Assembly (NCBI RefSeq): GCF_004010195.1
Contig: NC_057749.1
Span: 19,587,689 to 19,625,423 of the forward strand
DNA: 37,735 bases
Direction: 5' to 3'
Origin: Chiloscyllium plagiosum
Taxonomy: Eukaryota
Under the pieces are notes generated by a model, which made no database searches, was not told where the DNA came from, and saw only the letters and a program-made list of their open reading frames with translations. Shown piece by piece: positions 2,259-37,735 of the stretch. The position numbers and the translations under genes are program-made. How positions within the stretch are numbered: the first letter of the stretch is position 1; every line of letters starts with the position of its first letter.

Positions 2259-2288
2259 CGCTGTCCGTTCAGCACCATGTCGAGCGGC
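2259..2288. promoter_or_regulatory. Candidate non-canonical REST/NRSF (RE1) site
   Basis: Inverted right half-site CGCTGTCCG (2259-2267) abuts left half-site TTCAGCACC (2268-2276). Also 2268-2288 matches TTCAGCACCATGGACAGCGCC at 17/21. Confidence 0.55.
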
Positions 2289-2383
2289 CCCGCTTACAAC
2301 GACGAGAAAGGCTCGTCCCTGGGGGAGCCCGAATATGGACACGACCCTGCTAGCGGGGGAATCTTCTCCAGCGACTACAAAAG
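2277..2383 (+). CDS. AP3B2: AP-3 complex subunit beta-2, coding exon 1 (partial CDS)
   Basis: GCACC-ATG Kozak context; translates [35 protein letters not shown](R), matching the recalled vertebrate AP3B2 N-terminus ([21 protein letters not shown]); phase-2 donor AG|GTAACT at 2383/2384. Too short for the ORF track. Confidence 0.93.
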
Positions 2384-3589: not shown

Positions 3590-3800
3590 AGAACCCATAA
3601 ACCCTACTTTTTCTGTCAGTTGCTGTCTATCAAAAATCCATCTAACTCAGCTTTGAATAAATTCAGTGATCCAGTCTCCATTGCCCTCTGGGCAAGAGAA
3701 CTCCACGGATTAACAATCCAAAGAGAAGATGACTTTTTTCTCATCACCATCTAAAAAGAGAAACCTTTTCTTCTTAAACTGTATTCCGTACTTCTAGTTG
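3590..3800 (-). mobile_element. Degenerate CR1 3' fragment
   Basis: Resembles the reverse complement of CR1 ORF2 ends seen elsewhere in the window (aaaaatccatctaactcagctttgaataaattcagtga...). Confidence 0.6.
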
Positions 3801-5600: not shown

Positions 5601-5694
5601 GTTGAAAAGTGTGACGCTGGAAAAGCACAGTAGGTCAGGCAGACTTCTGAACAGAAGGAGAGTTGCATTTTCGGGTATAAGCCCTTATCAGGAA
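5601..5694 (-). mobile_element. Penelope-like terminal (pLTR) fragment with decayed hammerhead
   Basis: Homologous to 10160-10252 and 10998-11093. Minus strand reads CCTGATAAGGGCTTATACCCGAAAATGC, with a G missing from CTGATGA. Confidence 0.75.
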
Positions 5695-6612
5695 TTTTAT
5701 AATTTTGAGGTCTTAAGAAAAAGTAGGAAAGTGCAGTTGAGGATTATCAAATCAGCCATGATCTCATTAAATGCCAGAAATAGGCTGAATGGTCTTCTTC
5801 TGCTTCTGCTTGTATGTCTTATGGTCTTATTCTGTAATTACCTTATAATTCTATATTCCCTCACTAGCAGAAACACCTACTATGTCAAGCTCCCTTTGAA
5901 TCCTGTATGTTTCAATAAGATCAGCCCTCATTTTTCTAAACTAAAGAAAATTGCAAGACAACATTGGGAGGAGTAGTCAATAGACCCCTAAAAGCAAATA
6001 CTGTATATGGTGGGACAGAGAATCTGTCAAGATATAATGAGGGTCTATAACAAAGGCAGTTTATTAATCATGGATGAGTTTAAACTTCATGAAGATTGGG
6101 GTAGACAGACTGGCAAAAAGAACTCATTGGATGTATTCACAATAGTTTTCTGGAACCATATTTGGTGAATCCACTGGTATCAGGATATTTTGGATCTGAG
6201 GCAGGTTTAATAAATTATATCAGAGTAAAAGATCCCCTCTGAAATGGCGACCATGACATGATAGAATTTAGCGAGCAATTTGAGAGGGAGAAACTAGAGT
6301 CAGAAACAACTGTGCTACACTTAAATAAGGACAATTACAAAGGAATGAGTGCAGAGCTGGCTGGAGTGGACTGGGCAGGAACTTAGCAGAAAGGCAGTTG
6401 AGGAACAATGGCAAATGTTTAAGAAAAAATTTAATTGATCACAGTACCAACATATTCAAGTGAGGAAGAAAGAGTCTAAGAAAGGGTAAACTAGCCATGG
6501 TTAACCAGAGAAGTTAAGGATAGCAACAGATGGAAAGAAAAAACATACAATGTAGCAAAAATTAATGGTTAGCTAGAAGATTGGAAAAAATTTGGAAACC
6601 AACAATAATAAT

Positions 6613-6815
6613 CATGATTTAGAGATGCCGGTGTTGGACTGGGGTGTACAAAGTTAAAAATCACACAAGACCAGGTTATAGTCCAGCAGGTTTAATTAGA
6701 AGCACATTAGCTTTTGGAGCGACGTTCCTTCATCAGGTGGATGAAGGAGCATCGCTCCGAAAGCTAGTGCCCTTCCAGTTGAACCTGTATAACCTGGTGT
6801 TGTGTGATTTTTAAC
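6613..6815. mobile_element. Penelope-like pLTR pair in inverted orientation with target-site duplication
   Basis: Minus arm 6613-6739 and plus arm 6740-6815, both homologous to 36512-36604; flanked by AACAATAATAAT at 6601-6612 and 6813-6824. Confidence 0.85.
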
Positions 6816-6904
6816 AATAATAATGGGTAACTGGGAAATGACTGAGGAGTTGAACGAATACTGTACATCAATCTTTAGGATAGAAAACTCGACTATCATT
6901 CTAA

Positions 6905-7098
6905 ATTTACAATGCAAATTCGCTTTAATGTGATTGAAGAATTTAGATTGTTGTTTGTAGAACAAACTTTCCTTACCTCTATTACTTATAATGTAATTCC
7001 GGCCCTATTAGTTTAAATGGTGCAGCTATTGCGCGATTTTCGTATAACATGAGATTGCATGAGAACGGAGCTATTACGTTATATGAGAACTGACTCTA
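6905..7098 (-). mobile_element. pogo/Tigger-like MITE, degenerate copy
   Basis: Reverse complement of about 6985-7098 aligns by eye to 8263-8375 (gttctcatgcaatc...gaaaatcgc...tttaaactaat). Confidence 0.7.
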
Positions 7099-8139
7099 TA
7101 CTTGGATTTTCAGAAAACAATAAGGTCCCACACTTGGTGTTGAAGATGGTATGTTAGCATGGGTAGATAACTGGCTAACTAATAGGAGACGAAGAGTTGG
7201 GATAGGGGAACATTTTCAGGATGGCAACTTTTGAGTAGTGGTGTGCAATAGGAATAATTGCTGGGACCACAATTATATGGACTGATGGATTATAATGTGG
7301 AAAAATGTGAGGTTTTACACTGTGGCAGGAAGATCAAAAGGAAAACAGTTAATTTACAAGGCATTTAGATAGACACATGAATAGGCAGGGAATAGAGGAA
7401 TTTGACCATATGCAGGATGATGGCATTAGTTTAGAATAGCATCATGTTGGCTCAGACACGGTGGGCTGAAGGGCCTGTTCCTGTGCTGTACTTCTCTATC
7501 TTTTATTAATAAATGAATTGAATATCATTTAAATATAAAAATAGGGAGGTTTTGCTAAAACTATACGAGGCATTAGTCAGACCACAGTTTGAAAAATTCC
7601 AACTGATTTGAACCCATTATCTAAGGAAAGCTATACTGGAGGTAGGCCAGAGAGGGTTTATTAGACTGATACCAGGTATGGAGGGACTGAGGAGAGGTTG
7701 CTTAGTTTGACATGAAATATGGAAGACCAAGAGTGAACCTTATTGAAATGTATGAGATTCCTTGTGGACTTGACAGGGTAGATGTGCAAAAGTTGTTTCC
7801 CTTTGTGGGAGAGTATAGGACTGGAAGGCAGAATCTCAGAATAAGAGGTTGCACATTTAAGACAGGGATGAGGAAGAATTTCTTCTCTTGGAGGATAATG
7901 AAGCTGAAGACCTCTTTACCAGAGACTGCTGATGAGGCCGAGTCATTAAGTATATTCAAGGCTAAGGCAGACATATTTTTAACCTGTAAGGAAATCAATA
8001 GTTATGGACAAAACAGCAGGAAAATGTTGAGGATTATTAGGTCAGCCATTATGTAATTGAATGGTGGAACAGACTTGATGGGCCGAATGGCCTACTTCTG
8101 TTCCTCAGTCTTATGCTCTAAACTCCAATGAATAAAGGC

Positions 8140-8660
8140 ATTATTTGTTAAGCCATTCTTGGTAAATCAAATTGTCCATCCCAAGCATCAGCCTGGTGAA
8201 TCTCCTTTGAACAGCCTTCACTTGTAGTAGATCCTTCCTTAAGAACGGGTATCAAAATAGTACAGCCAGTTCTGCTATAACACGGTAGTTCCGTTCTCAT
8301 GCAATCCCGTGTTATAAGAAAATCGCATAATAGCAGCACTATTTAAACTAATGGGGCCAGAATTGCATTATAACCAATGCATGCTTTAAACATTCGCACT
8401 TTAGAATCATGTTATAGTGAATTCGCTTTAACGACATGCATGTTATAGCAGAATGACCCCCTGTATGTAGAAGTCCAGATGCAGCTTCACTAATACAGTA
8501 TCCTGTACACCTGTAACAAGAGTTCAGTATTTTAAAATTCTAACTGTTGAGCAATAATGGCCAAAATTTCATTTGCCTTCATTATTTGTTGTTGTATCTG
8601 CGTGATATATTTTGTGTTTCATGCACAAGAACACCAGGATGCTCTTTGCTGCACTGTTTT
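8140..8660 (-). mobile_element. Degenerate CR1 ORF2 fragment hosting a MITE
   Basis: Minus strand carries PYL(R)KD...LEAVQRRFTRL-type CR1 sequence on both sides of the MITE. Confidence 0.6.
8263..8463 (+). mobile_element. pogo/Tigger-like (Tc1/mariner superfamily) MITE
   Basis: Imperfect TIRs CAGCCAGTTCTGCTATAACACG and CATGTTATAGCAGAATGACCCCCTG; TA on both sides (8261-8262, 8464-8465). Confidence 0.8.
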
Positions 8661-9734
8661 TAGAGTCAGAGAGTCATAGAGGTGTACAGCACGAAAACAG
8701 ACCCTTTGGTCCAACTTGTCTATGCTGACCAGATATCCTAAATTAATCTAGTCACATTTGCCAGCACTTGGCCCATTTCCCTTTAAACCCTTCCTATTCA
8801 TGTAATCATCCAGATGCCTTTTAAATGTTGTAATTGTACCAGCCTCCACCACTTCCTCTGGTAGCTCATTCCGTACACACACCAAACTTTGCGTGAAAAA
8901 GATGACCCAAAGGTCCCTTTTAAATCTTTCCCCTCTCACCCTGAATGTATGCCCTCTAGTTCTAGACTCCCCCAACCCAGGGAAAATACCTTGTCTATTT
9001 ACCCTATTCATGCCCCTCATTATTTTATAAATCTCTATAAGGTCATCCTTCAGCCTCCAAAGCTGCAGAGAAACAGCCCCAGCCTATTCAGCCTCTCCAT
9101 CTTGCTCAAACCCTCCAACCCTGACAACATCCTTGCGAATTTTCTCTGAAAACTTGCAAGTTTCACAACATCCTTCCTATCGAAGGGACAACAGAATTGC
9201 ACACAATATTCCAAAAGTGGCCTAACCAATATCCTGTACAGCCATAACATGACCTCCCAACTCCTATACTCAATGCTCTGACCAATAAAGGAAAGCATAC
9301 TAAACACCTTCTTCATTATCCTATCTACCTGCGACTCCACTTTCAAGGAGCTATGAACCTGCACTCTAAGGTCTCTTTGTTTAGCAACATTCTCCAGGAC
9401 CTTTCCATTAATGGTACTGCCATGATTTGCCTTTCCATAATGCAGCACCTCACATTTATCTAAGTTAAATTCCATCTGCCACTCCTCGGCCCATTGGCTC
9501 ATTGTAGTCTGAGGTAACCTTCTGTGGTCTCCACCACACCTCCAATTTTGGTATCATCGGCAAACTTACTAACTATACCTCCTATGTTCACATGCAAATC
9601 CTTTATATAAATGATGAAAATTAGTGGACCCAGCACCGATCCTTGTGGCACACCACTGGTCACAGGCCTCCAGTGTGAAAAGCAACCATCTATCACCATC
9701 CTCTGTCTTCTATCTTTGAGCCAGTTCTGTATCT

Positions 9735-10050
9735 AGATTAGATTTAGATTACATTACAATGTGGAAACAGGCCCTTTGGCCCAACAAGTCCACACCGACC
9801 CGCTGAAGCGCAACCCACCCATACCCCTACATTTACCCCTTACCTAACACTACGGGCAATTTAGCATGGCCAATTCACCTGACCTGCACATCTTTGGACT
9901 GAGGGAGGAAACCGGAGCACCCGGAGGAAACCCACGCAGACACGGGAGAACATGCAAACTCCACATAGTCAGTCGCCTGAGTCGGGAAATGAACCCGGGT
10001 CTCTGGCGCTGTGAGGCAGCAGGGCTAACCACTGCGCCACCGTGCCGCCC
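9735..10050 (-). mobile_element. tRNA-derived SINE, HE1/V-SINE type
   Basis: Minus strand starts GGGCGGCACGGTGGCGCAGTGGTTAGC (A box), has GGTTCATTTCC (B box-like), the V-domain TCTGCGTGGGTTTCCTCCGGGTGCTCCGGTTTCCTCCC, a CR1-like 3' end and an (AATCT)n tail. Confidence 0.92.
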
Positions 10051-10118
10051 ACTATACAGGGAGAACTATCCATCTAAATGGATAGTTCTCCCTGTACTTC
10101 ATATGATCCAACCTTGCT

Positions 10119-11093
10119 AACAAGGAGAAAGTGAGGACTGCAGTTGCTGGAGATCAGAGTCGAAGAGAGTGATGCTGGAAAAGCACAGCTGGTCAGGCAA
10201 TATCCAAGGAGCAGGAGAGTCGAAGTTTCGAGCATAAGCTATCCGTAAGGAATGAGAGGGTGGCCCAAGGGGGCTGAGAGATATATGGGAGGGTTATGGG
10301 GCTGTAACTGGGAACACGATAGGTAGATGAAGGTGATAGATCAGAGGGGAGGGTGGAGCGGATAGGTGGGGAGGAAGATGGACCAGTAGGATAAAGTGGG
10401 GTGAGGGGCAATGAGGAAACTGGTGAAATCCACATTGATCCTGTGTGGTTGGAGAGTCCCAAGGGGGACGATGAGGTGTTCTTCCTTCAGGCGTCAGGTG
10501 GCTAGAGTTTGACAGCGGAGGGGGCATGCCCAGGACTTGCATGTCCTTGGCAGAGTGGGAAAGGGAGTTAAAGTGTTCTGCCAAGGCAACCCCACCACTC
10601 TGTGGCTGAACACATTAACTCCTCCTCCCACTCTGCCAAGGACGTGCAAGTCCTGGGCCTCCTCCACTGCCAAACTCTAGCCACCTGACACCCAGAGGAA
10701 GAACTCCTCATCTTCCGCCTTGGGACGCTCCAACCACGCAGGATCAATGTGGATTTCACCAGTTTCCTCATTCCCCCTCACCCCACCTTATCCCAGATCC
10801 ACCCTTCCAACTCAGCACTGTCCTTTTCAAACGTCCTATCTGTCCATTTTGCCTTCCCACCTATCCGCTCCACCCTCCTCTCTAACCTATGACCATCACC
10901 TGCACCTTTGTCTACCTATTGCAATCCCAGCTATCTTCCCCTCCAACTCCACCCCCCCTCCCATTTAACTGTCAACCCCCTTGGGCCACCCCCTCATTCT
11001 TGATGAAGAGGTTATGCTCGAAACATCCACTTTCTTGCTCCTTGGATGCTGCCTGGCCGGCCACGCTTTTCCAGCACCACACTCTTCAACTCT
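10119..11093. mobile_element. Penelope-like element 3' ends as an inverted pair (GIY-YIG C-terminus + pLTR)
   Basis: Minus arm about 10119-10583, plus arm about 10600-11093. Peptide VAEH(F/I)NS.SHSAKD.QVLG...LIFRLGTLQP..INVDF. TSD AACCTTGCT at 10110-10118 and 11094-11102. Confidence 0.88.
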
Positions 11094-12589
11094 AACCTTG
11101 CTGACCAGTCTACCATAGGGAACCTTGTTGAATGCCTTACTGAAGACCATATAGATCTCGTCCACCGCTCTGGCCTCATTTAATCCTCTTTGTTACTTCT
11201 TCAAAGAACTCAATGAAGTTAATGAGACATGATTTCCCATGCACAAAGCCATGTTGACTATCCTTAATCAGTCCTTGCCTATCCAAATACATGTAAATCC
11301 TGTCCCTCAGGATTCCCTCCAACAACTTGCCACCACTGATGTCAGACTTACTGGTCTATCGTTCCTGTCTTTTCCTAACCATCTTTCTCAAATAGTGGCA
11401 CCACGTTGGCCAACCTCCAGTCTTCCGGCATCTCACCTGTGACTATTGACGATCCAAATGTCTAATCAAGGGGGCTAGCAATCACTTCCCTAGCTTCCCA
11501 CAGAGTTCTAGAATATACCTGATCAAGTCCTGGGGATTTATTCACCTTTATGCAGTTTAAGAATCCAGCTCTTCCTCCTCTGTAATGGAGACTTTTTCAA
11601 GACGTCACCATCTATTTCCCCACATTCTGTATCTTCTATGTCCTTCTCCACAGTAAATACTGATGCAAAATGCTTGTTTAGTATCTTCCCCCATCTCCTG
11701 TGGTTCCACAATAGGCTGCCTTGCTGATCTTTGAAGGGTCCTATTCTCTCCCTAGTTACCATTTTGCCCTTAATGTATTTATAAAATCACTTTGGTTTCT
11801 CCTTAACCCTATTTGCCAAAGCTATCTCATGTCCCCTTTTTGCCCTCCTAACTTCCTTCTTAAGTATACTCCTACTGCCTTTATACTCTTCTAAGGATTC
11901 ATTCGATCGCTGCTGCCTATACCTGACATATCCTTCCTTCTTTTTCTTGACCAAAACCTCAATGTCTCTCTTCATTCAGCATTCCCTACACCTACCAGCC
12001 TTGTCTTTCACCCTAACAGGAACACACTGACTCTAGACTCTTGTTATCTCAGTTATGAAGTCTTCCCATTTTTTAACCATCCCTTTACCTGCAAACATCC
12101 ACACCCAATTAACTTTTGAAAGTTCTTGCCGAATACCATCAAAATCGGCCTTCCTCCAATTCAGAAGTTTAACTTTTAGATCCTGTGTGTACTTTTCCAT
12201 CACTATTTTAAAACTAATACAGTTATGGTCAGTGGCCCCAAAGTGCTCACCCACTGACACCTCAGTCACTTGCCCTGCCTTATTTCCCAAGAGTAGGTCA
12301 AGTTTTGCACCTTCTCTAGTAGGTACATCCACATACCGAATCAGAAAATTTTCTTGTACACACTTAAATTGCTCTCCATCTAAACCCTTAATGCTGTGGC
12401 AGTCCCAGTCCAAGTTAAAATCCCCTACCATTACCACCCTATTATTCTTACAGATAACTGTTGAAGTCTTGCTCCATTTGCATTTCGATTCTTCCTGTCA
12501 AAATGGACACCAGAGTTTTTTTTTATATTAAACCCCATCTGCCAATCAGACCCAGCAGTCCTAAAATTGTCAAAAACATTTTTATAGTA

Positions 12590-13040
12590 CTATAGAAAAA
12601 TTGCAGCACAGAAAAAGGCCATTCAGCCTATTGTGTCTGCATCAGCTGAACAAACTAATTGCCCATTCCAATCCCACTTTTAAACACCTGATCCGTAGCC
12701 TTGCAGGATCCAATGCTTCAGATAGAAATCCAAATTCTTTTTAAGTGAGTCAAAGGTTTCTTCAAATATCAAATTGGGCAAATTCCAGGCATCCACCACT
12801 TTCTGGGTGAAAAATGTTTTCCTCACATTCCCTCTAATCCTTCTATTAATAACCAAAATTTGCAACTCCAATATCTGACCTCTTTGCTAAGGTAAAAAGA
12901 TTTCCTTATTGGTTAACTATCGAAGCCCCTCATAATTTTGTACACAGAGATTAAATAACCCTTCATCGTCCTGTTCAATCTTTACCTATCCAATCTTTCC
13001 CCATAGCTTAAATTTTCAACCCCTGATATCATTTTTGTTA
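12590..13040 (-). mobile_element. Degenerate CR1 3' fragment
   Basis: ORF 12680-12871 contains RIRGNVRKTFFTQKVVDAWNLP. Confidence 0.75.
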
Positions 13041-13169
13041 ATAGCCATAACCTGCTTTCTATCTTGCCAAACAAGCTATACTTTGAGAAATGTTGAAGTG
13101 CATGTCAGAGTGGGTAGCTGGTGATTTCAGCTTGTGCTGCTGGCAACAAGGAGCTTCCATGTTGCTCAA

Positions 13170-13857
13170 TGTTACAAAACGGGGTTAACTCCTCTGCTAA
13201 TTTAAGCCAGCAACACAGAAAAGACTCAGATTTTTAATCTGTTAAAATTCAAGAGGCAAAGAGCTATCCCAGACGTAAATATTTAAAGTAAAAATTGACA
13301 ACTTTATTCTTTAAATCCAACAGAGAGTTTTCAAACTAACAACTATTTACAACTCCTTTGTCTTAAACCTATCTTTTACCTCCCACTCTACAGTACTAGT
13401 CTGATAAAAACAAAACGTCATGTTTCAAAACCAGTCAGCTTTGCCGAGATTTCTCTGTAGATTTTCCTCTGTAGATTCTCTCCAGGTTGGTTTCAATGTA
13501 TTGCTGTGCAAACTCCTTCTCCAGACATGTATCTTTCAGAGTGCTCTTAAACTAACAGCATACATCTATTGGTCATTTGGCAGTTCTCTCTCAATTGTTC
13601 AAAAATGTCCAGTTTTATACCCCAAAACATCGTATTGTTTCATTGGTTTTAATATTATCAAAATATTAAATTCAAACTTTATTAAAACTGTTTGGCCGAA
13701 TTTGAATTTGTTTTTGTCTCACGGCAACCCATCTATTCTATTTGTGACAACCATGTGTGACATTATTACCTTGTTCAGAGCACTTTATACTGTGTCAGGC
13801 AGTTTTGCTAGCTTTACAACTCTCTTAAAGGTACAGTCTCTCCACACCTTCATAACA
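13170..13857 (-). repeat. 3' LTR of the Gypsy element
   Basis: TGTTAC...ATAACA; direct repeat of 18728-19447; preceded on the minus strand by purine tract AAGGGGAAG (13858-13866). Confidence 0.92.
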
Positions 13858-14007
13858 CTTCCCCTTGTAAGAAAAAAATGAACTATCATAATGAAAAGAT
13901 GGTTTATTTATTTTTTCCTTAACCACATGTTTATGACATACATATGACTTTACTCTAAGTTCATGTTTACCTCCTTCCATCTATATATAACACTGAATAA
14001 AAGTATC

Positions 14008-15400
14008 TTATCTATACTTTATCAGTTTAATCTGCGATAACACATCTGTGATTACATTCTTATGTCCCACAACATGTACGATATGTAAATTGAAAGTCTG
14101 TAACGTAAGACTCCAATAAAATAGTTTCATATTCTTGTCTTTAAAGTGTTCCAAGAATGTTAGAGGATTGTGATCTGTGTACACAACTGTCTTCAACAGT
14201 TCGTGACATACACATTAAAAGGTTGTAAGGCCAGTACCAAACTTAATAGTTCTTTTTCGATCGTGGAGTATTTCCTCTGGTGGATGTTGAGTTTCTTCGA
14301 AAAGTAACCAACTGACAGTTCAATGCCATCATCATCTTCCTGTAGCAGTACAGCTCCAACTCTTATGTCACTAGAATTGATGGCAACTTTGAATGGTTTT
14401 GAAAAGCTTGGTGCAGTTAAAACTGGTGTGGTGGTTAATATTGCTTTCAAATGGTTGAATGACTCCTGGCATTGTTCTGTCCACCGAAACTTTGTGTTCT
14501 TTTTCGATCGTGGAGTATTTCCTCTGGTGGATGTTGAGTTTCTTCGAAAAGTAACCAACTCCACCGAAACTTTGTGTTCTTCTTCAGCAAATCGGTTAAT
14601 GGTGCCACGACACTGCTGAAGTTTGAACAAATGTCCGATAGAATCCGCTGAGTCCTAAGAGTCAAAGCATCTCTTTCTCCGAGATTGGTCATGGAAATTC
14701 CTCGATGACCTTCGTCTTTGCGTTCCACGGAGTCAACCATGTTATGTCCCAAGAATGCCAGCTCTGCTTTCGTTAATTCCGCTTTATTTAAGTTTACACC
14801 AGTTTTGCTTCTCATAGTCTTTCAAAGAGCTTTGCCAAATGTACCATGTGATCTTTCCAGGACTTACTAAAGATCACTACATCATCCAAATAGACTGTAC
14901 AGTTTGTTATCCCAGCCACAATTCTGTTCATGAGTCTTTGGAATGTGGCAGGTGTGTTCTTTATTCCAAAGGGCATCACTTTAAATTGATATAGCCCATT
15001 TGGGGTTATAAATACAGAAGTGTCTTTTGCCGTCTCTGGTAAAGGTACCTGCCAGTAACCCCGCATTAAGTCCAACTTGATGGTGTAACTGGCTTGTCCA
15101 ACTTTCTCAATACAGTGCTCCAATCTCAGAATTGGATACGAGTCTGATTTTGTAATGGCATTGACTTTCCGTTAATCCATGCAAAATTGTTGTATCCCAT
15201 CCAGTTTGGGAAATAAGACAATCAACGAACTCCACTTGCTCTGGTTCGGTTCAATGATATCCTCATCGAGCATGGCCTCCACCTCCTTCTGGACCTGTTT
15301 GGCTTTGAAAGGGATATTGTTTTATCGGAGCAGTATTCCCTACGTCTATTTTATGTACAATAGCATTAGTCCTCCACATCTGATTCTTAGATATGTCCTC
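14008..15400 (-). pseudogene. pol: Gypsy reverse transcriptase + RNase H (disrupted)
   Basis: KLDLMRGYWQVP...YQFKVMPFGIKNTPATFQRLM...YLDD; SVGYFSKKL...YSTIEKELL; VYTDHNPL. Confidence 0.92.
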
Positions 15401-18727: not shown

Positions 18728-19447
18728 TGTTACGACACAGGGTAAACCACTCTGCTAATTTAAACCAGCTACACAGAAAAGGTTCACCCCGTGCTGTAAT
18801 CTGTTAAAATTCGAGAGGCAAAGATTTATCCCAGAGTTAAATATTTAAAGTTAAAATTAACAATATTATTCTTTAAGTCCAACAGACAATATTAAAAATA
18901 ACAACTATTTACAACTCCTTTCTCTTAAACCTATCTTTTACCTCTCACTCTACAATACTAGTCTGATAAAAAAAATTCTGATTAAGATTTACAAAAAAAA
19001 TTTCAAAAACAGTCAGCTTTGCCGAGTTTCCTCTGTAGATTCTCTCTAGGTTGGTTTCGATGTTTTGCTGTGCAAACTCCTTCGCCAGACAGGTACCTGT
19101 CAGAGATCTCTTAAACTAGCGGCCTACATTTGTTGGTCTTTTGGCAGTTCTCTCTCAATTGTTCAAAAAATGTCCAGTTTTATACCCCAAAACATCAGAT
19201 CACTTCATTGGTTTTAATATTATCAAAATACTAAATTCAAACTTGATTGGAGTTTGGTATGTAGGGTTATAATTTAAACTGATTGGCTGAATTTGAATTT
19301 GTTTTTTTCTAATGGTAACCCAGTTACTCCATTTGTGTCGACCATGTGTGACATTGTTACCTTGTTCAGAACACTTTGTACTGTGTCAGGCAGTTTTGCT
19401 AGCTTTACAACTCTCTTAAAGGTTTAATCCCACTACACCTTCTACCA
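18728..19447 (-). repeat. 5' LTR of the Gypsy element
   Basis: TGTTAC...CTACCA; diverged direct repeat of 13170-13857. Confidence 0.92.
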
Positions 19448-23903: not shown

Positions 23904-25163
23904 GAGTTTCAAGATGGCGGCAACCCACCAGGTCTGAGTCTGCACAGCTCTGCCCAAGACTCAGGCAAAGTGAGGTGGCCACTCACAGCTCACCTCTTAA
24001 ATTACTTAAAATAGCTTTTGCCCAGCACTCTTGGCCATTTTGTACCAAACTTTAACAGTTTGGTACTTTTTAAAATGACTAAGGACAAAAGCTCCTGTAG
24101 TTCGCAACAGGCAGGGACCCCTCCTCCCCCCTCCCACAGCAGCAGAGACATCCGCGGCCACCTGGGGGGACATACCTGCAGAGGCGAGCCTGATCTTGGA
24201 GTTTGTGAAACTCCAAGAGAAGACCGATGCGTCCATCGAGGAGACCCGGTCCAGGCAAAAGCATGACCCAGAGATCGAGAAACTCGGGCAGCGTGTTGGA
24301 GGGACGGAGTAATGGGCCGTGGCGTCGGAGACTGCTGCTGAATCATCCGTGGGTCAGGTCCCGGCTCTGGACCGGCAAGTCCAGACCCTAGAGAAGCATA
24401 TCAACGACCTCAAAAATCGAGGTCATCAGAAAAATATTCAGTTGCTGGGCCTCTCCGAATGAGAGGAGGAAGGCCACCTTGTGGATTTCCTGGAGCAATG
24501 GCTCCCACAACTACTGAAATTGGAGTCGGAGCTGGGCCGAGTGCGGATTGAGCGGGCCCACTGGTTTGCTGTGCGCAGGCCTGGATCGGATCAAAGCCCC
24601 CGTCCGGTTCTAGTTCGACTTCAATGTTACAGGGAAAAACAAATGCTGCTGGAGGCCTCCAGAGTCTTGGGGAAGGATCCCCATGCCATGATGTACAAGG
24701 GCTCCGAGATAATGTTGTTTCAGGACTTCTCCCTGGTTGTGGTCTGCAAGAAGAGGGCATTTGACAAGGCGAAGAAGCGTCGGAAAGATTTTTTTTATAT
24801 AGATATTTTTATTGAAAATTTAACATGTTTTTAGAAGTTTTCAAATAAAAAAAATGCAAGTACAAACACTAATATACAATTAAATCTTAAATAAATAATA
24901 GCCAAAACCTGTCAAACAAAAAGAAGAGATACAGAGAAGAAAAGAAAAAGACAAAACTCAACTAACTACTAATCTAACCTATAACTAACCAGAGTGTATG
25001 ATCATATATCTTACATTACTCAAGAGAAAAAAGAAGGATAACATAGTAATTAAGTAGTGAAGTACATGCTTGGAATGAGTTAACATCGAGTCATAATAAA
25101 ATCCGTATTCATGCGGGATTCCTCTCCCAAGGGGCCCCGGATCAGCCAGAACCATTACCTCAA

Positions 25164-28100
25164 CTAGATGAAAGCCCTTGATAGAATAGCCGAAATATAT
25201 GTATCTATGTAATTCAAAAAGGGCTGCCATATTTTATAGAATAATTCCGTTTTTTGGTGCACCATATTTGTAAGGAAGTCAAGGGGAATACATTCCATGA
25301 TTAATTTGTGCCAATTCGGAAGTCCTGACGGGCCCTCAGCCACCCAGTTTACTAAGATGTTTTTCCTTGCACAGAAGGAGAGAATGGAAAATAACTTCCT
25401 CCCATGCACATCCAGAGAAAGTAAGCTCGAGAAGCCCAGGAGAAGAGATACTGGATCTACTGTAATTTCCGTTCCCAAGATTTCTGTCAGGACGTTTACT
25501 CTTTGGCCCAGTATTTGCAGATCTTATGGCATGTCCATAAACAGTGTGTAAGAATGCCCACCTCTGTTTTACATTTGGGACACATTGGAGATGCTCCTGC
25601 CCTAAATTTTGCCAATCATTCCGGTGCCATATGGGCCCTATGAAGTATCTTTAACTGAATGGCCTGGGTTCTGTTACAAATGGAGCATTTTCCCAGATGT
25701 CATTCCACATTTCTATAGAAATTTCCAGCCCCAAATCCTGATCCCATGTTCTAAGCAGATGGTCCATATCTTCCGACACTTCATCATGTAATAAATGATA
25801 AAGAGTGCTGACCGAGTACACCCATTGGACACAACACTCTACATTCTTTATCTGCTTTATAGAGACTATCTAATAGCGTAGTCTTCTGTATGTAATCTCG
25901 AATTTGGAAGTATCGACAGAGGTCTCCATTAGGTAATCCAAATTTCTGATGCAGATGTTCAAAAGAGGACCCCCTCTTCAAACAGATCCCCTAAACAGGA
26001 GATACCCTTGGATCTCCAGGATTTGAATGTGGCATCTGTGAGCCTTGGTTGAAAACCCCATGCCTCCACTATAGGAGTATAGGGGGATGTTTTATATGAA
26101 TTAGCCTCGTTTTGCCGCATTATATTCCAAGCTTTAATTGTGTTTAGTACTATAGGGTTTTTACAGTGGTCCGTAATGATTTTCATCTTATCTAAAAATA
26201 AGCGGGCACTTTATTTGAGAAGCCTCAATGTCCATCCAGATTGATTGCGGGTCAGACGAGACCCAATCTGCTACATAGCTTAACAAGGAACTTAACTGAT
26301 ACTTCCTAAAGTCTGGAAAATCCAGCCATCCCCTTGCCTGTGGAAGCTGTAGCTTCCTTAACTTAATGAGGGGCTGTCTATGATTCCAGATGAAAGAATC
26401 CAGCCAACCGTACAATTTGCGCAGTGCCGGCCTCAGCAGCATCACTGGGAGCATTCTCAGAGGGTATAAGAGACAGGGCAAGACATTCATTTTAATCAGG
26501 GCTATTCCACCTAGCCAGGAAATTGGAAGGTCTCCCCAGCGTTGAAGGTCCTGCCTTAACCTTTCCAATGGATGCATAAAATTGGCCTGGTATAGCTGGC
26601 CAAATATTGGGGTGATAAAAATACCTAAGTATAAGAAACCCTCCAGAGACCAGCGAAAGGGGAAGTGGGATCAGTCCAATAAGTGGGACATACTAGTGAG
26701 GCCACCCATCGGCATGGCCTCCGATTTTGAAAAATTAACTTTGTAGCCTGAAAATGCACTAAATGTATTAATAACTTGGATTAAACAAGGCACGGACATC
26801 AGAGGACTACTAAGAAAAAGGAGAACATCATCTGCATATAGGGCAATTTTATGTTTACCTGTACCAACCCTCGGGGCCGTTATATTAGAGTCAGCCCATA
26901 TAGCTTCCGCTAGTGGCTCAATTGGAACAGTGAGAGACGACATCCCTGACAGGAGCCCCTACTCACGCTGAAGCTATCCGGGCCTAATCCATTGATGATC
27001 ACAACTGCTTTGGGATCATTATACAGTGTTGAGACCCATTTGGCAAATATCTTTCTAACGCCAAACCTTTCCAATGTATAGAATAGGTATGACCATTCAA
27101 CCCTGTCGAATGCCTTTTCCGCGTCCAATGAGACTACTATTCCTGGTATTTTTTCCTGATGACAGACTTGAATCACATTCAAGGCCCTTCTAATATTATT
27201 TGATGATCTACGGCCCTTGATAAACCCCTTCTGATCCTCTTTTATGATATATGGCAGTACCCTCTCTAGCCTCAATGCTAATGTTTTAGAAAGAATTTTA
27301 AAATCTACATTTAGCAAGGATATTGGTCTGTATGATGCGCAATCTTCTGGGTCCTTTTCTTTTTTGAGAATAAGGGAGATATTCACCTCTTTCAGTGAAG
27401 GCGGGAGGTAGCCCTGACTATATGAGTAGTTATACATGTCCATAAGTGGGCCGGCTAATACTCCTGTAAACTCTTTGTAAAATTCAATCTGAAAGCCATC
27501 TGGGCCAGGTGTCTTACCACTCTGAAGTTGCCTGATTGCATCAAGTATTTCCTGGGTTGTTAGGGGAGCATTCAGGACCGATACCTTTTCCGGGGTTAAG
27601 TCCGGAAAGGCCAGGCTTTTAAAAAAGGACTGCATTCTCCTGGATCTATCTTCACAATCATGCGATTTATATAAATCAGAATAAAACTTTCTGAAGATTG
27701 TGTTGATCCTTTTGTGATCATGAGTCAGAGTACCAGCACTTTCCCTGTTAGCCATGATAGCTTGAGGGGCCTTTTTTTTCCTTGCGAGAAATGCTAAGTA
27801 TCTACCAGATTTATCGCCAAATTCATATAACTTTTGTTTTGCAAATAATATTTCCCTCTTTGCCATTTGGGTGAACGCAGTATTCAGAGCTGTCCTAAGG
27901 GCCGTAATCCTATGTAATTTGGCAATAGAAGGTCTGTCAACGTATGCTGTTTCAGCTGCTTTTAAGCGAGCCTCAAGTAGACGCTGTTGTTCGCCCTTTA
28001 ATTTTTTCTGGGTCGCGGAGTATGAAATGATCAGACCTCGCGCATAAGCTTTAATTGTCTCCCACATCATTGACGGATTACTAGCTGTACCTGAATTAAT

Positions 28101-28908
28101 TTCCAAGAAAGTTTTAAATTCTTGAGAAAAATATTTTACAAATTTGCTATCCTTCATTAAGAAGGAATCCATACGCCAATGTCAGGGGGATGCCTCTTTG
28201 TTCCCAGCCTTGATTTCCATATACACAGCAGCGTTATCAGAAGTTATTATATTACCTATTTTACAGGATGATATGGAATTTTAAAAAGTTGAGGAGGCAA
28301 AAAGCATGTCAACTCTAGTGTGACATTTGTGTGGATTAGAGTAAAAAGAGAAATCTCTGCATTGTGGGTGGAGGCACCTCCACGCATCTACTAATCCTAA
28401 TTCTTTATTCAAATCCGCCAACTGTCTGGATCTGGGGGATACACCCGCAGTAGCCTTGGGTATCCTGTCTATTTTTGGGTCCATAATGCAATTAAAGTGT
28501 CCCCCTATAATTGTATGACGAGCACCAAGAGCCATCAGTTTGGAGAAGACTTCCATTATAAATTTGAAAGGATGCGCCGGGGGACAATACAGATTTAAAA
28601 TCCCATATTCCTCTCCATTTATAAGGGCTTTAATTAGTTTATATCGTCCAGATTCATCTTTTATCTGACTTAGGATTTTGAAAGGGAGATTCTTCCGAAT
28701 AAGATTTTCAGCTGAAGGAAGAAAAGAAGACCTGATCAAATCCACCCTGTTGTAATTTCAAATATTCTTTATCCTATAAGTGTGTCTCCTGTAGGAGAGC
28801 TATATCAACCCTTTCTTTTTTGAGGTTTGATAATATTTTCTTCCTTTTGATTGGTGAATTACTCCCCTTGACATTCCAGGTGCACCATTTAATCAAATGA
28901 CTAACCAT
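25164..28908 (-). pseudogene. L1 ORF2 (APE endonuclease, RT, CCHC), frameshifted
   Basis: TWNVKG...LLQETHL, PGPDGF, YRPISLLNVDFKIL, SLDAEKAFDRVEW, LYADD, CPKC...HCLWTC; split over several ORF-track frames. Confidence 0.93.
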
Positions 28909-30448: not shown

Positions 30449-32057
30449 TCTTTCCTTTAGTCATTGCTCAAGTTTGGTGCAAAATAACTAGCTGTATTAA
30501 ATAAAAGCTATTTTAAATGATTTGGCAGGTATGGTGGAGGCAGTCAGCCCACTTTGTCTGAGTCTTGGGCAGAGCACTACAGACTCAGACCTGCTGGGTC
30601 GCCGCCATCTTGGATCTTGTCTGAAAGACTTAAATATTCGATATTCTATGCGATATTCAGTCGTGGAGGATCTGTATATAACTTTGGATCACGAGAGAAA
30701 GTAAAAGAATTCCTGGATGCTCTCAAATAGACTACGGGACTCGAACTGTATGGATAACGACTTTATTTTGCCCCCCCCTTTGTCTATCCTTCTTTCTTTC
30801 TCCATCTTTCTTTTGTCCATCTTTCCCTGGGGGGTGGACGGGCTTGTTCCTTATTCTTTCTTTGGTCTCTTATCTATAGCTCTTTGATTATTGGGGGATG
30901 TTTCTGAGTGGGGTTTTCTTTCTTTTTTCTTTATTTAGTTGCTTAATACTTGCTGGGATTGTAATTTTGTAATCTTACATATTTCTATCTTGTGTTGTTT
31001 TGTTAAACGTATCTAGGTGATAGTGTAGGGTCACCTACTTTTAACTCCTGTTTTATAAGATAATATAACTATTTCTGATCGTGCTGCAGTATACATGGAA
31101 GTTAAGATTAGGGATGATGGGATAGGTCCCCGACATTAGCGTATGGACCCTTTCTTATTGAAGGATAGCAAGTTCAAAAATATTTCTCACAGGAATTTAA
31201 AACCTTCTGGTATATCAATTCAGGCACAGTCGGTAACCCTTCGACGAAGTGGGAGACTGCTAAGGCATACGCATGAGGCTTGGTTATCTCATATTCTGCG
31301 ACCCGGAAAAAACAAAAGGGTGAGCAACAGCATCTGCTCGAGGCTCGACTGAAGGCAGCTGAAACTGCATATGTCGATAGGCCCTCCATTACTAAGCTAC
31401 AGAGGATCACAGCCCTTAGCGCAGCCTTGAATACCGCACTGACTCAAACAGCAAAGAGGGAGATATTATTCGCGAAGCAGAGATTATTTGAATACGATGA
31501 CAAGCCTAGCAGGTATCTAGCGTACCTTGCCAGAAAGAAAAAGGCTTCCCAAGCCATTACGGCTATTAGAGAGAGTGCTGGTACCCTGACTTGTAATTGT
31601 AAAAAGATCAATGCAGCATTTAGAAAGTTCTATTTTGAATTGTATAAGTCGCAGGACTGTGAGGATTGAGGATAGAACTAGGAAGATGGAGTCTTTCTTT
31701 AAAAATCTGACCCTCCCAGGCCTAACCTCGGAGCAGGTGTCATTCTTGAATGCCCCCTGACAACCCAGGAAGTACAGGAGGCAGTGAAGCACCTTCAGAG
31801 TAGCAAAGCACCTGGACCAGACGGATTCCAGGCTGAGTTCTATAAAGCATTTATTAGGGAACTGGCTGGGCCACTCATAAATATGCATAACTATTCGCAG
31901 TCAGGGCTGCCTCCTGCCTTCGTTGAGAGAAGCAAATATTTCTCTCATTCTTAAGAAGGGGAAGGCCCCAGAAGACTGCTCTTCATATAGAGCCATATCC
32001 TTGTTAAGTGTAGATTTTAAAATTCTTTCAAAAATGTTAGCATTAAGACTGGGGAGG

Positions 32058-32570
32058 GTCATAGAGTCATAGAGATGTACAGCATGGAAACAGACCCCTT
32101 CGATCCAACCCGTCCATACCGACCAGATATCCCAACCCAATCTGGTCCACCTGCCAGCACCCGGCCCATATCCCTCCAAACCCTTCCTATTCATATACCC
32201 ATCCAAATGCCTCCTAAACGTTGCAATTGTACCAGCCTCCACCACTTCCTCTGGCAGCTCATTCTCTGCGTGAAAAAGTTGCCCCTTAGGTCTCTTTTAT
32301 ATCTTTCACCTCTCACCCTAAACCTATGCCCTCTAGTTCTGGATTCCCCGACCCCAGGGAAAAAGCTTTGCCTATTTATCCATCCATGCCCCTCATAATT
32401 TTGTAAACCTCTATAAGGTCACCCCTCAGTCTCCGACACTCCAGGGAAAACAGCCCCAGCCCGTTCAGCCTCTCCCTCCAACCCTGGCAACGTCCTTGTA
32501 AATCTTTTCTGACCCTTTCAAGTTTCACAACATCTTTCCGCTAGGAAGGAGACCAGAATTGCATGCAATA
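32058..32570 (-). mobile_element. 5'-truncated CR1 inserted into the RT of the + strand L1
   Basis: GTCATAGA repeat tail at 32058; VEAGTIATFRRHLDGYMNRKG; L1 frame reads ALRLGRV before it and IKEDQTGFIKG after it. Confidence 0.9.
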
Positions 32571-34994
32571 AAAGAGGACCAGACAGGGTTTATAAAGGGT
32601 GGCAAGTCAACTAGTAACATTAGAAGAGTCTTAAATATGGCATAAGCCTGCCAGCAGGGAGCGATACCGGGTTTCGTTGTCTCCCGAGATGCAGAGAAGG
32701 CATTTGATCAGGTAGAACGGCCATATCTTTACGATATACTGGAACGGTTTGGTGTTAGAGAGGTCTTTACTAAATGGGTTTCAGTATTATATAATGATCC
32801 CAAAGCAGCAGTAATTACCAACGGTTTAAGTTCGGATAGCTTTAGCGTTGGCAGAGGCTGTCGCCAGGGATGTCCTCTCTCACCATTATTATTTACACTA
32901 GTGATTGAACCACTAGCGGAAGCTATACGAACTAACCCTAATATAACGGCTCCGAGGGTTGGATCGGGCAAGCACAAAATTACTGTCTATGCAGATGATG
33001 TCCTCCTTTTCTTAAGTGATCCTTTGACATCTGTGCCCCGCTTAATTCAAGTGGTCAGTTTACTTGGTATGTTTTCAAGTTACAAAATCAATTTAGTGAA
33101 ATCGGAGGCCATGCCATTGGGAGGCCTTGCCAGTATATCCAATTTTCCAGACAGATCTTGTTTTTCCTTTCAGTGGTCACTAGAAGGTTTTCTATACTTG
33201 GGTATTTTTATCATTTCGGTATTTGGTCAGCTATATAAAGTCAATTATACACAATTATTACAGAATATAAGGCAGGACCATCAACACCAGGGAGATCTCC
33301 CAATATCTTGGCTAGGCAGAGTAGCCTTAGTTAAGATGAATATTCTACCTCACCTTTCATATCCTATGAGAATGCTCCCCTTGATGCTGCCGAGACAGGC
33401 GGTGCATAAGCTTTACAGATGGCTCGGCTCCTTTATTTGGAATCATAGACGGCCCCTTATCAAATTAGAAAAGCTGCAGCTTCCACAAGTAAGGGGTGGG
33501 CTGGACTTTGTACCAATTGAGTTCCCTATTATCTTATGTAGCTGATTGGGTCACTTGTGACCCACAATCAATCTGGTTAGATATTGAGACTTCCCAAGCA
33601 AGATGTCCCCTCATCAATCTACTATTTATGGACAAGATGAGAGTTATTACGGACTATTGTAAAAAACCCATTATATTAAGTACAATCAAAGCCTGGAGGA
33701 TAATGCGACAAGATGAGGGTAACCTGCAAAAAACCTCCCCTTATATCCGCATAGTGGGAACATTGGGATTCCAGCCAGAGCTGACCGATGCTGCGTTCAA
33801 AACTTGGTAGTCCAGAGGTATCTCCTGTTTGGGAGATCTGTTCGATGGGGAGGTCGTGATGTCCTTTGAGCAGCTGCACCAGAAGTTTGGACTGCCCAGC
33901 AAGGACCTCTTTCAGTCTTTTCAAATACGAGACTTTATACAAAAGAAGACCACACTGATAGTCCATCCTTATAAATCAGATAGGGAAAGGAGTGCGCTTT
34001 AACTGAAGAGGCCGCCCTTGGTCAGTACTCTCTACCACTCACTATGCAATAAGGAATCGAAGAACGTGGAACGGTTATATAAAACCTGAAATGAAGAATT
34101 AAGGTTGGAAATCTCTTCAGAAATGTGGGACGACACCTGAGAAAATGCCAGGAAGATCTCTATCTGTAACAGAACTCGGGCTACCCAATTGAAGATACTT
34201 CATAGGGCTCACAATGGCACCTGAATGACTCGCAAAGTTCAAGGCAGGAGCATCCCCAATATGTCCTAAATGCAAAATTGAAGTTGGTACTCTCACGCAT
34301 TGTCTGTGGACATGCCATAAGATCCGCAGGTATTGGTACAGAGTAGCGAATGCCTTGACAAACGTTTTGGGTACGGAGGTTGGGTATGGAGTCCCTACTT
34401 TCGGGCTCCCCAAATTTTCCCTCTCTGGACATATATGGGCGGAAATTATTTACTATCCTTTTGTGAGGAAAAATATTTTAGTGAATTGGGTATCCAAAGG
34501 TCCCCCAGGACTTTCAAATTGGCACAGGATAGTCATGGAATATATCCCCCTTGACTTCCTCACGAATATGGTGCGCCAAAAAACGGAATTATTTTATAGA
34601 ACATGGCAGCCCTTTTTTGAACTGCACCGACACAGATATTTCGGCCATGTTGTCCAGGGCTTTTGCTTAGCCATGGTCATGGTTCCAGCTGATTTGGGGG
34701 CCCCCCGGGAGGAGGTATCCCGTATAAATACGGGTTTTGTTATGACTTGATATAAGTCTATTTTGAGTGTGTATCTAGTTATTTATTTACCTTTTTGTTC
34801 ATTGTTAATAATGTATGATATCATATTTTATGTTGTGGTCATTTGTAGAATAGATTAGTAGTTAGTTTTTTTTATTTTACTTTGGTATTGTTATTATATC
34901 GTAAAGTGGAATGCACTAGTTTGTATTATTTTTGTAAGTTTGTAAAAAATCTTAAAAGTCTTCTTTTTCAATAAAAATATCCAAATAAAAAAAA

Positions 34995-35908: not shown

Positions 35909-36490
35909 TGAAGATCTGGACTCCCCAGGGGAGGGGGGTCTCTCTGATCCTCAATCAAATCATTCAGTAAACACTACCAATTCGGTCTGGTTCTGCAAGA
36001 TTTCACACTTTATTTAATCTCGGCTGGGCATAGCTTGTCCAGTAATACTTCCATGTTCCTTGGAGAAACTGTGCACATGGTTTAAGACAAAGATATTTTT
36101 ATACCTTTTTTGAGAGAAGTACAGGCCATCATTACAGAGCACATTCAATTTTAATGAAATGACTTTATTGACAGCAACTTAGTCCAATGATATTTCCTGG
36201 GAACCAACCTTGTTTTCCAAAACACTAGTTTTCCTATCTCACAAACCTAGTCTTTGCACGTGCACTTGCAAGGTCAGTTAGGATAGCTCATAATGTCTTA
36301 TCTCGTCTAGTTATTTCTATGCTGTAAAGGAAGCATTGTCTGCTAATCTTTGTTGAAACAGACTATGGTCAGTTCAGCTTTTAGCAGGGTTAAAAGCCTC
36401 TCTAATCAGAACTGTCAATTTGCAGCCTAGAAGCCATTTTGTCAGGTTATTTGCATTAAGAAGCCATTTTAATGCTGCCTATGTTAGTAA
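35909..36490 (-). repeat. Possible solo-LTR-like insertion
   Basis: Abrupt break from CR1 at TG (35909); on minus, TATAAAA (about 36096-36102) precedes AATAAA (about 36010-36015). No TSD verifiable. Confidence 0.3.
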
Positions 36491-36511
36491 GATAAAATAG
36501 CTCTCCACAAT

Positions 36512-36546
36512 CACCTGATGAAGGAGCGTCGCTCCGAAAGCTAGTG
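36512..36546 (+). ncRNA. Minimal type I hammerhead ribozyme motif (Penelope-associated, dimer type)
   Basis: CAC-CTGATGA-A-GGAGC(GTC)GCTCC-GAAA-GC-TA-GTG: stem I CAC/GTG, core boxes intact, 5-bp stem II, palindromic AGCT stem III; predicted cut after A36543. Confidence 0.8.
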
Positions 36547-36601
36547 TGCTTCCAATTAAACCACTTTGTACACCCCAGTCCAACACCGGCATCTCCAAAT
36601 C

Positions 36602-37735
36602 ATGACTACTATCGACACCACTAACTTCCAGCTTAAAGTGGAGAGGATCTCCAAGAAGATTGCACATATCGACAGAGACATCAAGTTTCTATAGGAATGC
36701 AGGCAAGCAGGAAAGATCCCGAAAGGATTACGGATCACGAACCCACTTAGGTCAACCTACAACACGGACTACGCAGAGAGACTTTGCCACCGCACCTCTC
36801 GTAAACTTCTCAATCATCTCGTGCACCAACTCTACAGCAGACGCCACAACCTTGAAATTCAGATGGAGTCCACACTCACAGCCTGCACACAGGATACATC
36901 AGTACAATTACGTGACATTGCCAAACGGACAAGGTGACAAAACTACACCACGTACATGCACGCCAAGAACAAAAAACTGGAGAAGCTTGGTATTCTTACC
37001 AGTAATAGCAAAGCCCGCCCTGGAACCACAGTAGACAACATTATCACTGCGGGGAAGTCTATTGTCAACTTATCAGACCACACCCTTCGACTGGAAGAGA
37101 TTAAAGTCCTGAGTAGGGGTCTCAATTTCTGCCCCACCACCAAAATGGACCCGTTGGTTCTGGCAGCAGACACAGAGGAGTTCATCAGACGAACGAGACT
37201 CCGGGAATTCTTTCAAGGTGCCGGCAGTGATCCCACTGAGCCCACTGATGAACTAGAACAGTCATCACAGGGATCTGTAGAGGGGCGACCAAAGAAGGTG
37301 TCAACATGGACCCCACCGGAGGGCCGCTGTCCTGGGCTTGACATGTATTCTCAAACTGTCAGGAAATATATAAATGCCAGATTCATCAGCTGTACCCACA
37401 AGGTAGAGCAAAACATCACCTGTTCACAACGCAATGCCATCCAGGCTCTCAAAACCAATGACAATATTGTCATCAAACCAGCAGATAAAGGAGGAGCCAT
37501 TGTCATTCAGAATAGAACAAATTACTGCAAGGAAGTGTACCGACAACTGAACAACCAGAAACACTACAGGCAACTACCAGCTGATCCAACCAAAGAACAC
37601 ACCCGAGAATTAAACACACTGATCAGAACTTTGGATCCAGTCCTTCAGAGCTCCCTACGCGCCCTCATCCCACGTACTTCTCGTGTAGGCGACTTCTACT
37701 GCCTTCCAAAGGTACACAAAGCCAACACACCGGGA
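36602..37735 (+). pseudogene. Penelope-like RT ORF N-terminal 378 codons with two in-frame stops
   Basis: One frame throughout: MTTIDTTNF...IVNLSDHTL...LSRGLNFCP...NIVIKPADKGGAIVI...FYCLPKVHKANTPG; TAG at 36692 and TGA at 36935; no frameshift. Absent from the ORF track. Confidence 0.9.

Follow-up and report, generated by a model that had tools for sequence, protein, structure and literature searches.

A minimal hammerhead ribozyme motif in the pseudo-LTR of a Penelope-like element within intron 1 of AP3B2 in the shark Chiloscyllium plagiosum

Results

Features of the locus

The window, which is the whole stretch of 37,735 nucleotides that was analysed, contains the coding part of AP3B2 exon 1, a minimal type I hammerhead motif and the beginning of a Penelope-like element (PLE), all on the same strand (Table 1). 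AP3B2 was located by searching the genome for protein families and by scanning for a peptide motif. Exon 1 is followed by a GT splice donor at position 2385, and the remainder of the window downstream of the donor is intron 1. No other exon encoding part of the first 200 residues of the protein is present in the window, and a Pfam scan of 150 plus-strand open reading frames (ORFs) from positions 1–15254 returned nothing relevant. The exons that encode Adaptin_N and AP3B1_C lie on the same strand, 76–177 kb past the window end (C40:19701747–19802961). The best named matches of the AP3B1_C exon are shark AP3B2 proteins. Because exon 1 is upstream of the motif and the later exons are downstream on the same strand, the hammerhead lies in intron 1 and is sense to the AP3B2 pre-mRNA, which is the orientation that the original prediction had assigned to it.

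Other repeats are present in the window. Diverged inverted repeats at 24960–28257 and 31058–34867 have arms of up to 606 nt that are 71–83% complementary, and they contain long open frames at 26913–28181 (minus strand, 423 aa) and 32646–33542 (plus strand, 299 aa). They probably represent another transposable element, of which two old copies face opposite ways. A direct repeat of about 700 nt occurs at 13170–13878 and 18728–19442; its copies are 83–92% identical and 5.56 kb apart.

Table 1. Positions of the annotated features in the window
Feature	Position	Strand	Evidence
AP3B2 exon 1, coding part (36 codons)	2277–2384	+	100% identity to residues 1–36 of AP-3 complex subunit beta-2
Damaged second-family hammerhead copy	5665–5691	−	fuzzy match; blastn
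Head-to-head inverted pair of short main-family copies, both hammerheads damaged	6605–6815		9-bp flanking duplication AATAATAAT
Damaged second-family hammerhead copy	10222–10251	−	fuzzy match; blastn
Damaged second-family hammerhead (core TTGATGA, stem II mismatch)	10995–11027	+	fuzzy match to the family-B core of L010; blastn
Target-site duplication, left copy (14 bp, CTATGTTAGTAAGA)	36479–36492	+	longest common substring of the flanks
Upstream pseudo-LTR remnant (64 nt common to the family)	36499–36562	+	blastn against family loci, 95–98% identity; flank comparison
Minimal type I hammerhead motif	36512–36546	+	read directly; descriptor; exact genomic copies
Leader, pseudo-LTR to ATG	36563–36601	+	same 38–39 nt form the 3'-end 'tail' in many family copies
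PLE ORF, N-terminal part, running to the window end	36602–37735	+	translation; homology

Anatomy of the motif

In RNA letters, the motif reads CAC, CUGAUGA, A, GGAGC-GUC-GCUCC, GAAA, GC, UA and GUG. Helix I is 3 bp long and pairs CAC (36512–36514) with GTG (36544–36546). The core consists of CTGATGA at 36515–36521 (C3–A9) and GAAA at 36536–36539 (G12–A14 and A15.1). U16.1 corresponds to T36542 and H17 to A36543, and the type I catalytic core is complete. A36522 is unpaired between A9 and G10.1 and is followed by the G10.1–C11.1 pair (G36523/C36535), as in minimal hammerheads. Stem II has 5 bp, formed by GGAGC (36523–36527) and GCTCC (36531–36535), and closes a GTC loop. The palindrome AGCT (36539–36542) replaces a closed helix III, which is unable to close inside one copy of the motif. 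The predicted cut is after A36543 (A17).

The sequence thus contains a real minimal hammerhead motif, with every core base and stem where the original prediction had placed them. The extra A after the core and the AGCU palindrome, which were also predicted, are both published hallmarks of the minimal hammerhead class (PMC4209133). Stem II and its loop (36523–36535) form an almost perfect palindrome (GGAGCGTCGCTCC). Because of this near-palindrome, two copies are predicted to dimerise best through an intermolecular stem II duplex and not through the ribozyme fold.

The bare core pattern occurs once in the 37.7-kb window against 1.32 expected occurrences, which is not significant. The full descriptor requires the core, a bulge of 0–1 nt, a stem II of at least 4 bp, a palindromic A-NN-T, H17 and a 3-bp helix I. 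It matches a single site in the window (36512–36546) and none in 300 dinucleotide shuffles on both strands. A search of the whole window with Rfam at the gathering score gave no hammerhead match, and neither did a search of 36300–36800 (501 nt) at E ≤ 10. The Rfam miss possibly results from the absent helix III and loops and is not counted against the motif. The hammerhead model search proposed with the original prediction is positive with our own descriptor and negative with the Rfam covariance models.

The Penelope-like element insertion

Family homology is found from 36499 on, which leaves only 13 nt upstream of helix I, and about 34 nt that are present in other copies are missing at the 36562/36563 junction. 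The upstream pseudo-LTR (pLTR) is thus a partial copy. Six bases (TAAAAT, 36493–36498) separate the left target-site duplication (TSD) from the first family-homologous base. The leader matches a 'tail', a concept taken from PMC8557442.

The ATG at 36602 is 55 nt after 36546. The ORF contains in-frame stops at 36692–36694 (TAG) and 36935–36937 (TGA) and no frameshift up to the window end. Of 1,231 candidate proteins, 185 match the open part (36938–37735) at E ≤ 0.001. The best of them (E = 9.8e-81) has 56% identity to residues 115–369 of an 881-aa protein, in which RVT_1 occupies residues 370–559. In relatives, RVT_1 is combined with GIY-YIG at the C-terminus, as in the Penelope-like architecture. 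The position of the ATG agrees with the claim of a Penelope ORF 55 nt downstream of the motif, and the ORF start is homologous to RT/GIY-YIG PLE proteins. The piece of the ORF inside the window has no Pfam family above the cut-off because it is N-terminal of the RT. Two families precomputed for the homologues, PF28514 and PF26215, are absent from a Pfam scan of proteins P0001 and P0012.

A second hammerhead is found beyond the window, with its core at L009:2170, on the same strand and 3,390 nt downstream of the first. The upstream and downstream copies are completely identical over 36503–36554. The first 2,014 bases past the window end, which would include the RT and endonuclease of the insertion, read N, and the 3' untranslated part and the second hammerhead are visible from L009:2015 on. 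Stretches of N also adjoin hammerhead copies in L001, L005, L007 and L079; those in L007 and L009 end 135–155 nt upstream of the hammerhead, where element coding sequence would be expected. A second pLTR, which had been suggested as something to look for in the downstream contig, therefore exists and carries an identical motif. The right copy of the TSD (CTATGTTAGTAAGA) is at L009:2245–2258, directly after the downstream pLTR end ...GATTTTTAAC. Because the 14-bp TSD is present on both flanks, the insertion is a single event of about 3,487 bp (3.49 kb).

The two hammerheads are in the pLTRs that flank the PLE ORF, which is the location described for minimal hammerheads. The assignment of the motif to the PLE minimal type I hammerheads is borne out by the core, the hallmarks and this setting. 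The insertion reads as a nearly full-length but coding-dead PLE, judged from the N-terminal part of the ORF. A short, non-autonomous element was also considered as the identity of the copy at 36512–36546 and was rejected, since the TSD encloses the ORF.

The two pLTR copies differ downstream of the cut site, where, relative to other family members, about 34 nt are missing from the upstream copy and about 9 nt from the downstream copy. These deletions (36562/36563 and L009:2199–2244) may be post-insertion decay or an irregular insertion junction.

Three intact sense copies of the motif are found within about 10 kb of intron 1 (window position 36515, L009:2170 and L009:8739). As they share one intron, dimer partners are available in the pre-mRNA.

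Copies in the window and in the genome

Six motif copies were predicted in the window, with one undamaged. All six are present, and copy-by-copy comparison shows that five are damaged and that only the plus-strand copy at 36515 is not. Two families are represented by three copies each. In the main family, the copy at 36515 (+) is intact, the copy at 6738 (+) has TGGATGA, and the copy at 6736 (−) has AAAA for GAAA and a stem II mismatch. In the second family (CUGAUGA-A-GAGC-UUAU-GCUC-GAAA-CGUC), the copies at 11000 (+), 10251 (−) and 5691 (−) are all damaged. To be the sole undamaged copy in the window is not a special status, as the genome contains 5,931 identical 35-mers.

In the 3.56-Gb assembly, the 29-nt core occurs with at most two mismatches at 28,020 places (14,139 + 13,881), and the reversed-pattern control occurs at none. 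The 5,931 exact 35-mers (3,016 + 2,915) likewise have a control of 0. A descriptor that excludes the main family finds 13,545 sites (6,721 + 6,824) against 133 (61 + 72) in the control. At least five further minimal-hammerhead families are present in the genome (L010–L029). They have other stem II and helix I sequences, and ACGU replaces AGCU as the palindrome. Among the listed copies of these families, CpG decay of ACGU to ACAU or AUGU is frequent.

Covariation among families

The covariation set consists of 31 distinct instances, taken from L001–L009 and 20 further loci, and two of the 31 are chance core matches. The 20 loci are a small sample, hand-picked from the first 100 matches of the excluding descriptor to represent the visible classes. 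In a MAFFT alignment of 26 instances, the 3' halves of families with different stem II lengths are out of register. Pairs were therefore counted by anchoring on the core.

Among the 31 instances, helix I is CAC/GUG, UAC/GUA, UCA/UGA, GCA/UGC or AGCU/AGCU. Stem II is GGAGC/GCUCC, GAAGC/GCUUC, GAGC/GCUC, GAGUC/GACUC or GUCACC/GGUGAC, and the helix III tetranucleotide is AGCU or ACGU. In this hand-picked sample, helix I forms all three of its pairs in 17 of the 31 instances, compared with 0, 7 and 0 when the partner is slid by 1, 2 and 3 nt. When helix I strands are paired across families, all three pairs form in 85 of 730 combinations. The one-nucleotide bulge and the G10.1–C11.1 pair are found together in 27 of the 29 true family instances, and the tetranucleotide is palindromic in 27 of the 31. 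Helices I and II thus change as pairs across families in the 31 hand-picked instances, and the stem covariation on which the original prediction depended is seen in this small sample. Variation inside the main family is almost nil.

Copy boundaries

Copy boundaries were compared in 43 copies obtained from 40 consecutive places in the exact-35-mer list, and their upstream flanks were classed by eye. The pLTR continues upstream for at least 17 nt in 15 copies. Unrelated DNA begins within about 10 nt in four copies, and the flank of one copy is masked. In the other 23, the neighbour is an inverted copy of the same element, no more than about 11 nt from helix I. On the sense strand, 27 of the 43 copies (L042–L081) therefore have their first homologous base within about 11 nt of helix I; 23 of these adjoin an inverted copy and four adjoin unrelated DNA. 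Such clustering suggests that the template RNA has a discrete 5' end just upstream of the hammerhead, which may be a transcription start or a processing site.

The complete 38-nt tail is present in 13 of the 43 copies, and the remaining 30 end at or near ...GATTTTTAAC or elsewhere. The commoner 3' end ...GATTTTTAAC (for example, L009:2235–2244) coincides with a run of five T, which is readable as a polymerase III terminator. Combined with a discrete 5' end, such an end would be in keeping with a short RNA that is transcribed independently. Promoter boxes were not identified. None of the 43 sampled copies runs on into the ORF, and no tandem arrays are found among them.

Among the inverted pairs with placeable ends, three of five are flanked by duplications of 9–10 bp (window 6605–6815, L002 and L059). 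In four of five resolved pairs, the tail is on one arm and absent from the other. The head-to-head twin copies are, on this reading of their flanks, single insertion events. In this sample, an upstream-pLTR hammerhead followed by an ORF is thus the rare context, and the common one is a short unit led by the hammerhead, in many cases paired head-to-head with a twin. The family shows the insertion architecture of PLEs, namely partial tandems, inverted 5'-truncated partners and a tail. In Craig et al. (PMC8557442), PLE insertions are described with partial tandems, an inverted 5'-truncated partner and a 30–40 bp tail at one end.

Evidence on cleavage

Two 64-nt copies were folded with ViennaRNA. 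The model ignores tertiary contacts and proteins, and the energy argument is correspondingly soft. In the double hammerhead, each copy keeps its stem II, helix III is a 4-bp AGCU/AGCU duplex, and two helices I of 3 bp are swapped between the copies; the predicted energy of this structure is −17.7 kcal/mol. The monomers have minimum free energies of −11.6 and −18.1 kcal/mol (sum −29.7). In the best cofold (−40.8 kcal/mol), the two molecules are instead joined through their near-palindromic stem II strands. Contacts between molecules contribute only a few kcal/mol to the ribozyme fold in this model, and the predicted dimer interface is marginal.

If cleaved RNAs were copied to their ends, then the copies would be expected to begin at G1.1 or to end at A17. 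This premise was applied genome-wide. In 61 copies, all four bases before G1.1 are unlike the family. Twelve of these copies were inspected, and four have true breaks at the site (L034, L035, L038 and L039). The other eight have small indels, mutations in the motif or breaks at other places. When the same test is moved 4 nt downstream of G1.1 as a control, 173 copies break, many of them from one indel subfamily. Just after A17, six copies break, of which three are single-base insertions. The genome-wide terminus test thus finds no pile-up of copy ends at the cleavage site. Cleaved RNAs would appear to be templates that are read to their ends rarely, if ever; the test does not address whether cleavage itself occurs.

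Contigs from four sequencing runs, guessed to be RNA and possibly DNA, bridge the cut site and are uninformative on ends, strand and expression. In these contigs, depth over 36499–36614 is far above that over the ORF part.

Discussion

Comparison with known systems

The motif closely resembles the minimal hammerheads of PLEs (Cervera & de la Pena 2014, PMC4209133). Both have the type I topology and a full catalytic core, a long stem II, a very short helix I and a palindromic tetranucleotide in the place of helix III. Both are found in flanking repeats about 3 kb apart and in thousands of mostly solo copies, some of which are close together on opposite strands. The hosts named in PMC4209133 include bony fishes, the coelacanth, Xenopus and reptiles, whereas the host here is a cartilaginous fish. 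The copy number is above the approximately 9,000 in Xenopus and 4,000 in the coelacanth given there. The shark family is also very uniform, with its 5,931 identical 35-mers, whereas PMC4209133 emphasises high variability and gives D. virilis as the exception. The kind of ribozyme is already described in that 2014 paper, and what is new is a very large, uniform family in a shark genome. A literature search on PLE hammerheads in sharks found no paper on the subject.

PAc, a Poseidon-type PLE of Anolis carolinensis (PMC11167929), shares with the shark element the order pLTR–ORF–pLTR and a hammerhead near the ORF start. It also shares two alternative 3' ends (the 'tail' signature) and a hammerhead that is kept across copies. 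In comparison with PAc, the shark ATG is 58 nt after the cut site, a distance of about 92 nt in family members that lack the deletion. PMC11167929 measures activity, protein dependence and RT start sites for PAc, whereas the shark motif is described here from its sequence.

Satellite and non-LTR retrozyme repeats (newt satellite 2, Schistosoma Sm-alpha and Xenopus retrozymes; PMC7229834; bioRxiv 10.64898/2026.07.22.740005) carry type I hammerheads that depend on dimers. These are similar to the shark motif in their weak or absent helix III and palindromic loop, which makes two copies necessary. As in the shark family, non-autonomous short copies vastly outnumber coding elements, and the preprint proposes a derivation from PLE pLTRs. 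Retrozymes and satellites form head-to-tail arrays and circular RNAs and have canonical helix I/II loops, whereas the shark copies are dispersed singles or head-to-head pairs. The shark helix I also differs from theirs in having only 3 bp.

The intronic hammerheads of RECK and CTCL in amniotes are conserved across species. Like the shark motif, they are sense and inside an intron of a protein-coding gene (PMC6155905). They are single-copy and canonical, whereas the shark motif is a repeat copy without sign of host selection.

Interpretation of the AP3B2 motif

The site is very probably the hammerhead of the short upstream pLTR of a coding-dead, nearly full-length PLE, sense in AP3B2 intron 1 and likely a neutral relic. 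If the motif were to act as described for its class, the AGCU tetranucleotides of two copies in one transcript, or in two transcripts, would pair to form a 4-bp helix III. Each CAC would pair with the GUG of the other copy, which would create two active sites, and both would cut after A17 (A36543 here). Because the interface is weak, any cutting is expected to be slow and dependent on a protein or chaperone. The copy at 36512–36546 is most likely a neutral relic without a host role, as judged from its sequence and context. It is probably intact in sequence because it is young and short.

A different function for the motif is unlikely, although several observations fit it. The motif may mainly provide the PLE ribonucleoprotein with a structured module for recognition or dimerisation, with self-cleavage incidental. 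At least five families retain the core, the stems and the palindrome, but every fossil copy is uncleaved across the site, and copy termini fail to mark it. An inverted partner lies within about 11 nt of helix I in 23 of the 43 sampled copies, with flanks classed by eye. Catalytic mutants of PAc left insertion in vitro unaffected (PMC11167929), and Craig et al. call the function of hammerheads in PLEs unclear (PMC8557442). However, all catalytic core bases are strictly retained, for which selection for catalysis is the simplest cause. Fungal PLE hammerheads cleave well as monomers (PMC4209133), and inverted 5'-truncated partners are also described in PLE clades without hammerheads (PMC8557442).

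It is similarly improbable that most of the approximately 28,000 copies are, instead of decayed coding elements, short hammerhead-led units in which the palindrome and the swapped helix I provide a dimer linkage for twin insertions. The unit would have its 5' end 3–11 nt upstream of helix I and its 3' end at ...GAUUUUUAAC or 38 nt further, for a length of about 95–135 nt. Such units would typically land as head-to-head twins inside one TSD. Two short RNAs would be held together, and reverse transcription primed from both sides of the target would meet at the hammerhead. If this were true, then the role of the motif would be to template twin insertions rather than to cut, and the family would be a SINE-like parasite of the PLE machinery in sharks.

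An active intronic ribozyme is, by our estimate, quite unlikely. In this explanation, the upstream and downstream hammerheads pair inside the AP3B2 pre-mRNA or inside an element transcript, cut after A36543, sever intron 1 and release an RNA that begins at G36544. The two pLTR hammerheads, 3,390 nt from each other, are intact, identical and sense, a further intact sense copy is found about 10 kb downstream, and a dimer model is published for the class (PMC4209133; PMC6765202). In its summary of Lunse, Weinberg & Breaker 2017, PMC6765202 states that such variants cleave as dimers. Against this, the interface is marginal in ViennaRNA. According to PMC4209133, minimal hammerheads have no activity as monomers and low in vitro activity even as dimers. 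Cleavage by the Anolis hammerhead required the addition of the element's own protein (PMC11167929), and the ORF here is broken. PMC11167929 also reports no RNA-seq reads with a start or an end at the PAc cut site. In the shark genome, copies that start at G1.1 are not enriched (61 against 173 at the control point, with four of 12 inspected being true breaks). Efficient cutting of the AP3B2 intron and release of an element RNA from 36544 therefore look unlikely on this indirect evidence.

A chance resemblance, in which an ordinary repeat happens to hold CTGATGA...GAAA, has a negligible probability and is rejected, because the family comparison shows several families of unrelated sequence in the same genome that keep the architecture with compensatory changes, the full descriptor has no match in 300 shuffles and the motif is associated with a PLE ORF and pLTR, although the bare core is expected 1.32 times per window and Rfam is empty.

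Significance

For the host gene, the PLE hammerhead is probably without importance, and the insertion is one more retroelement relic in a long intron. It is a well-delimited natural example, with two identical hammerheads, a clear TSD and a copy-specific junction. The fossil record of copy termini in this genome is directly readable, and it gives no sign of the cleavage site as a terminus. Thousands of identical copies would give a strong signal in end-specific RNA sequencing. A genome with such an unusually large and uniform ribozyme family is a convenient test ground for whether PLE hammerheads cut in vivo and what purpose they serve.
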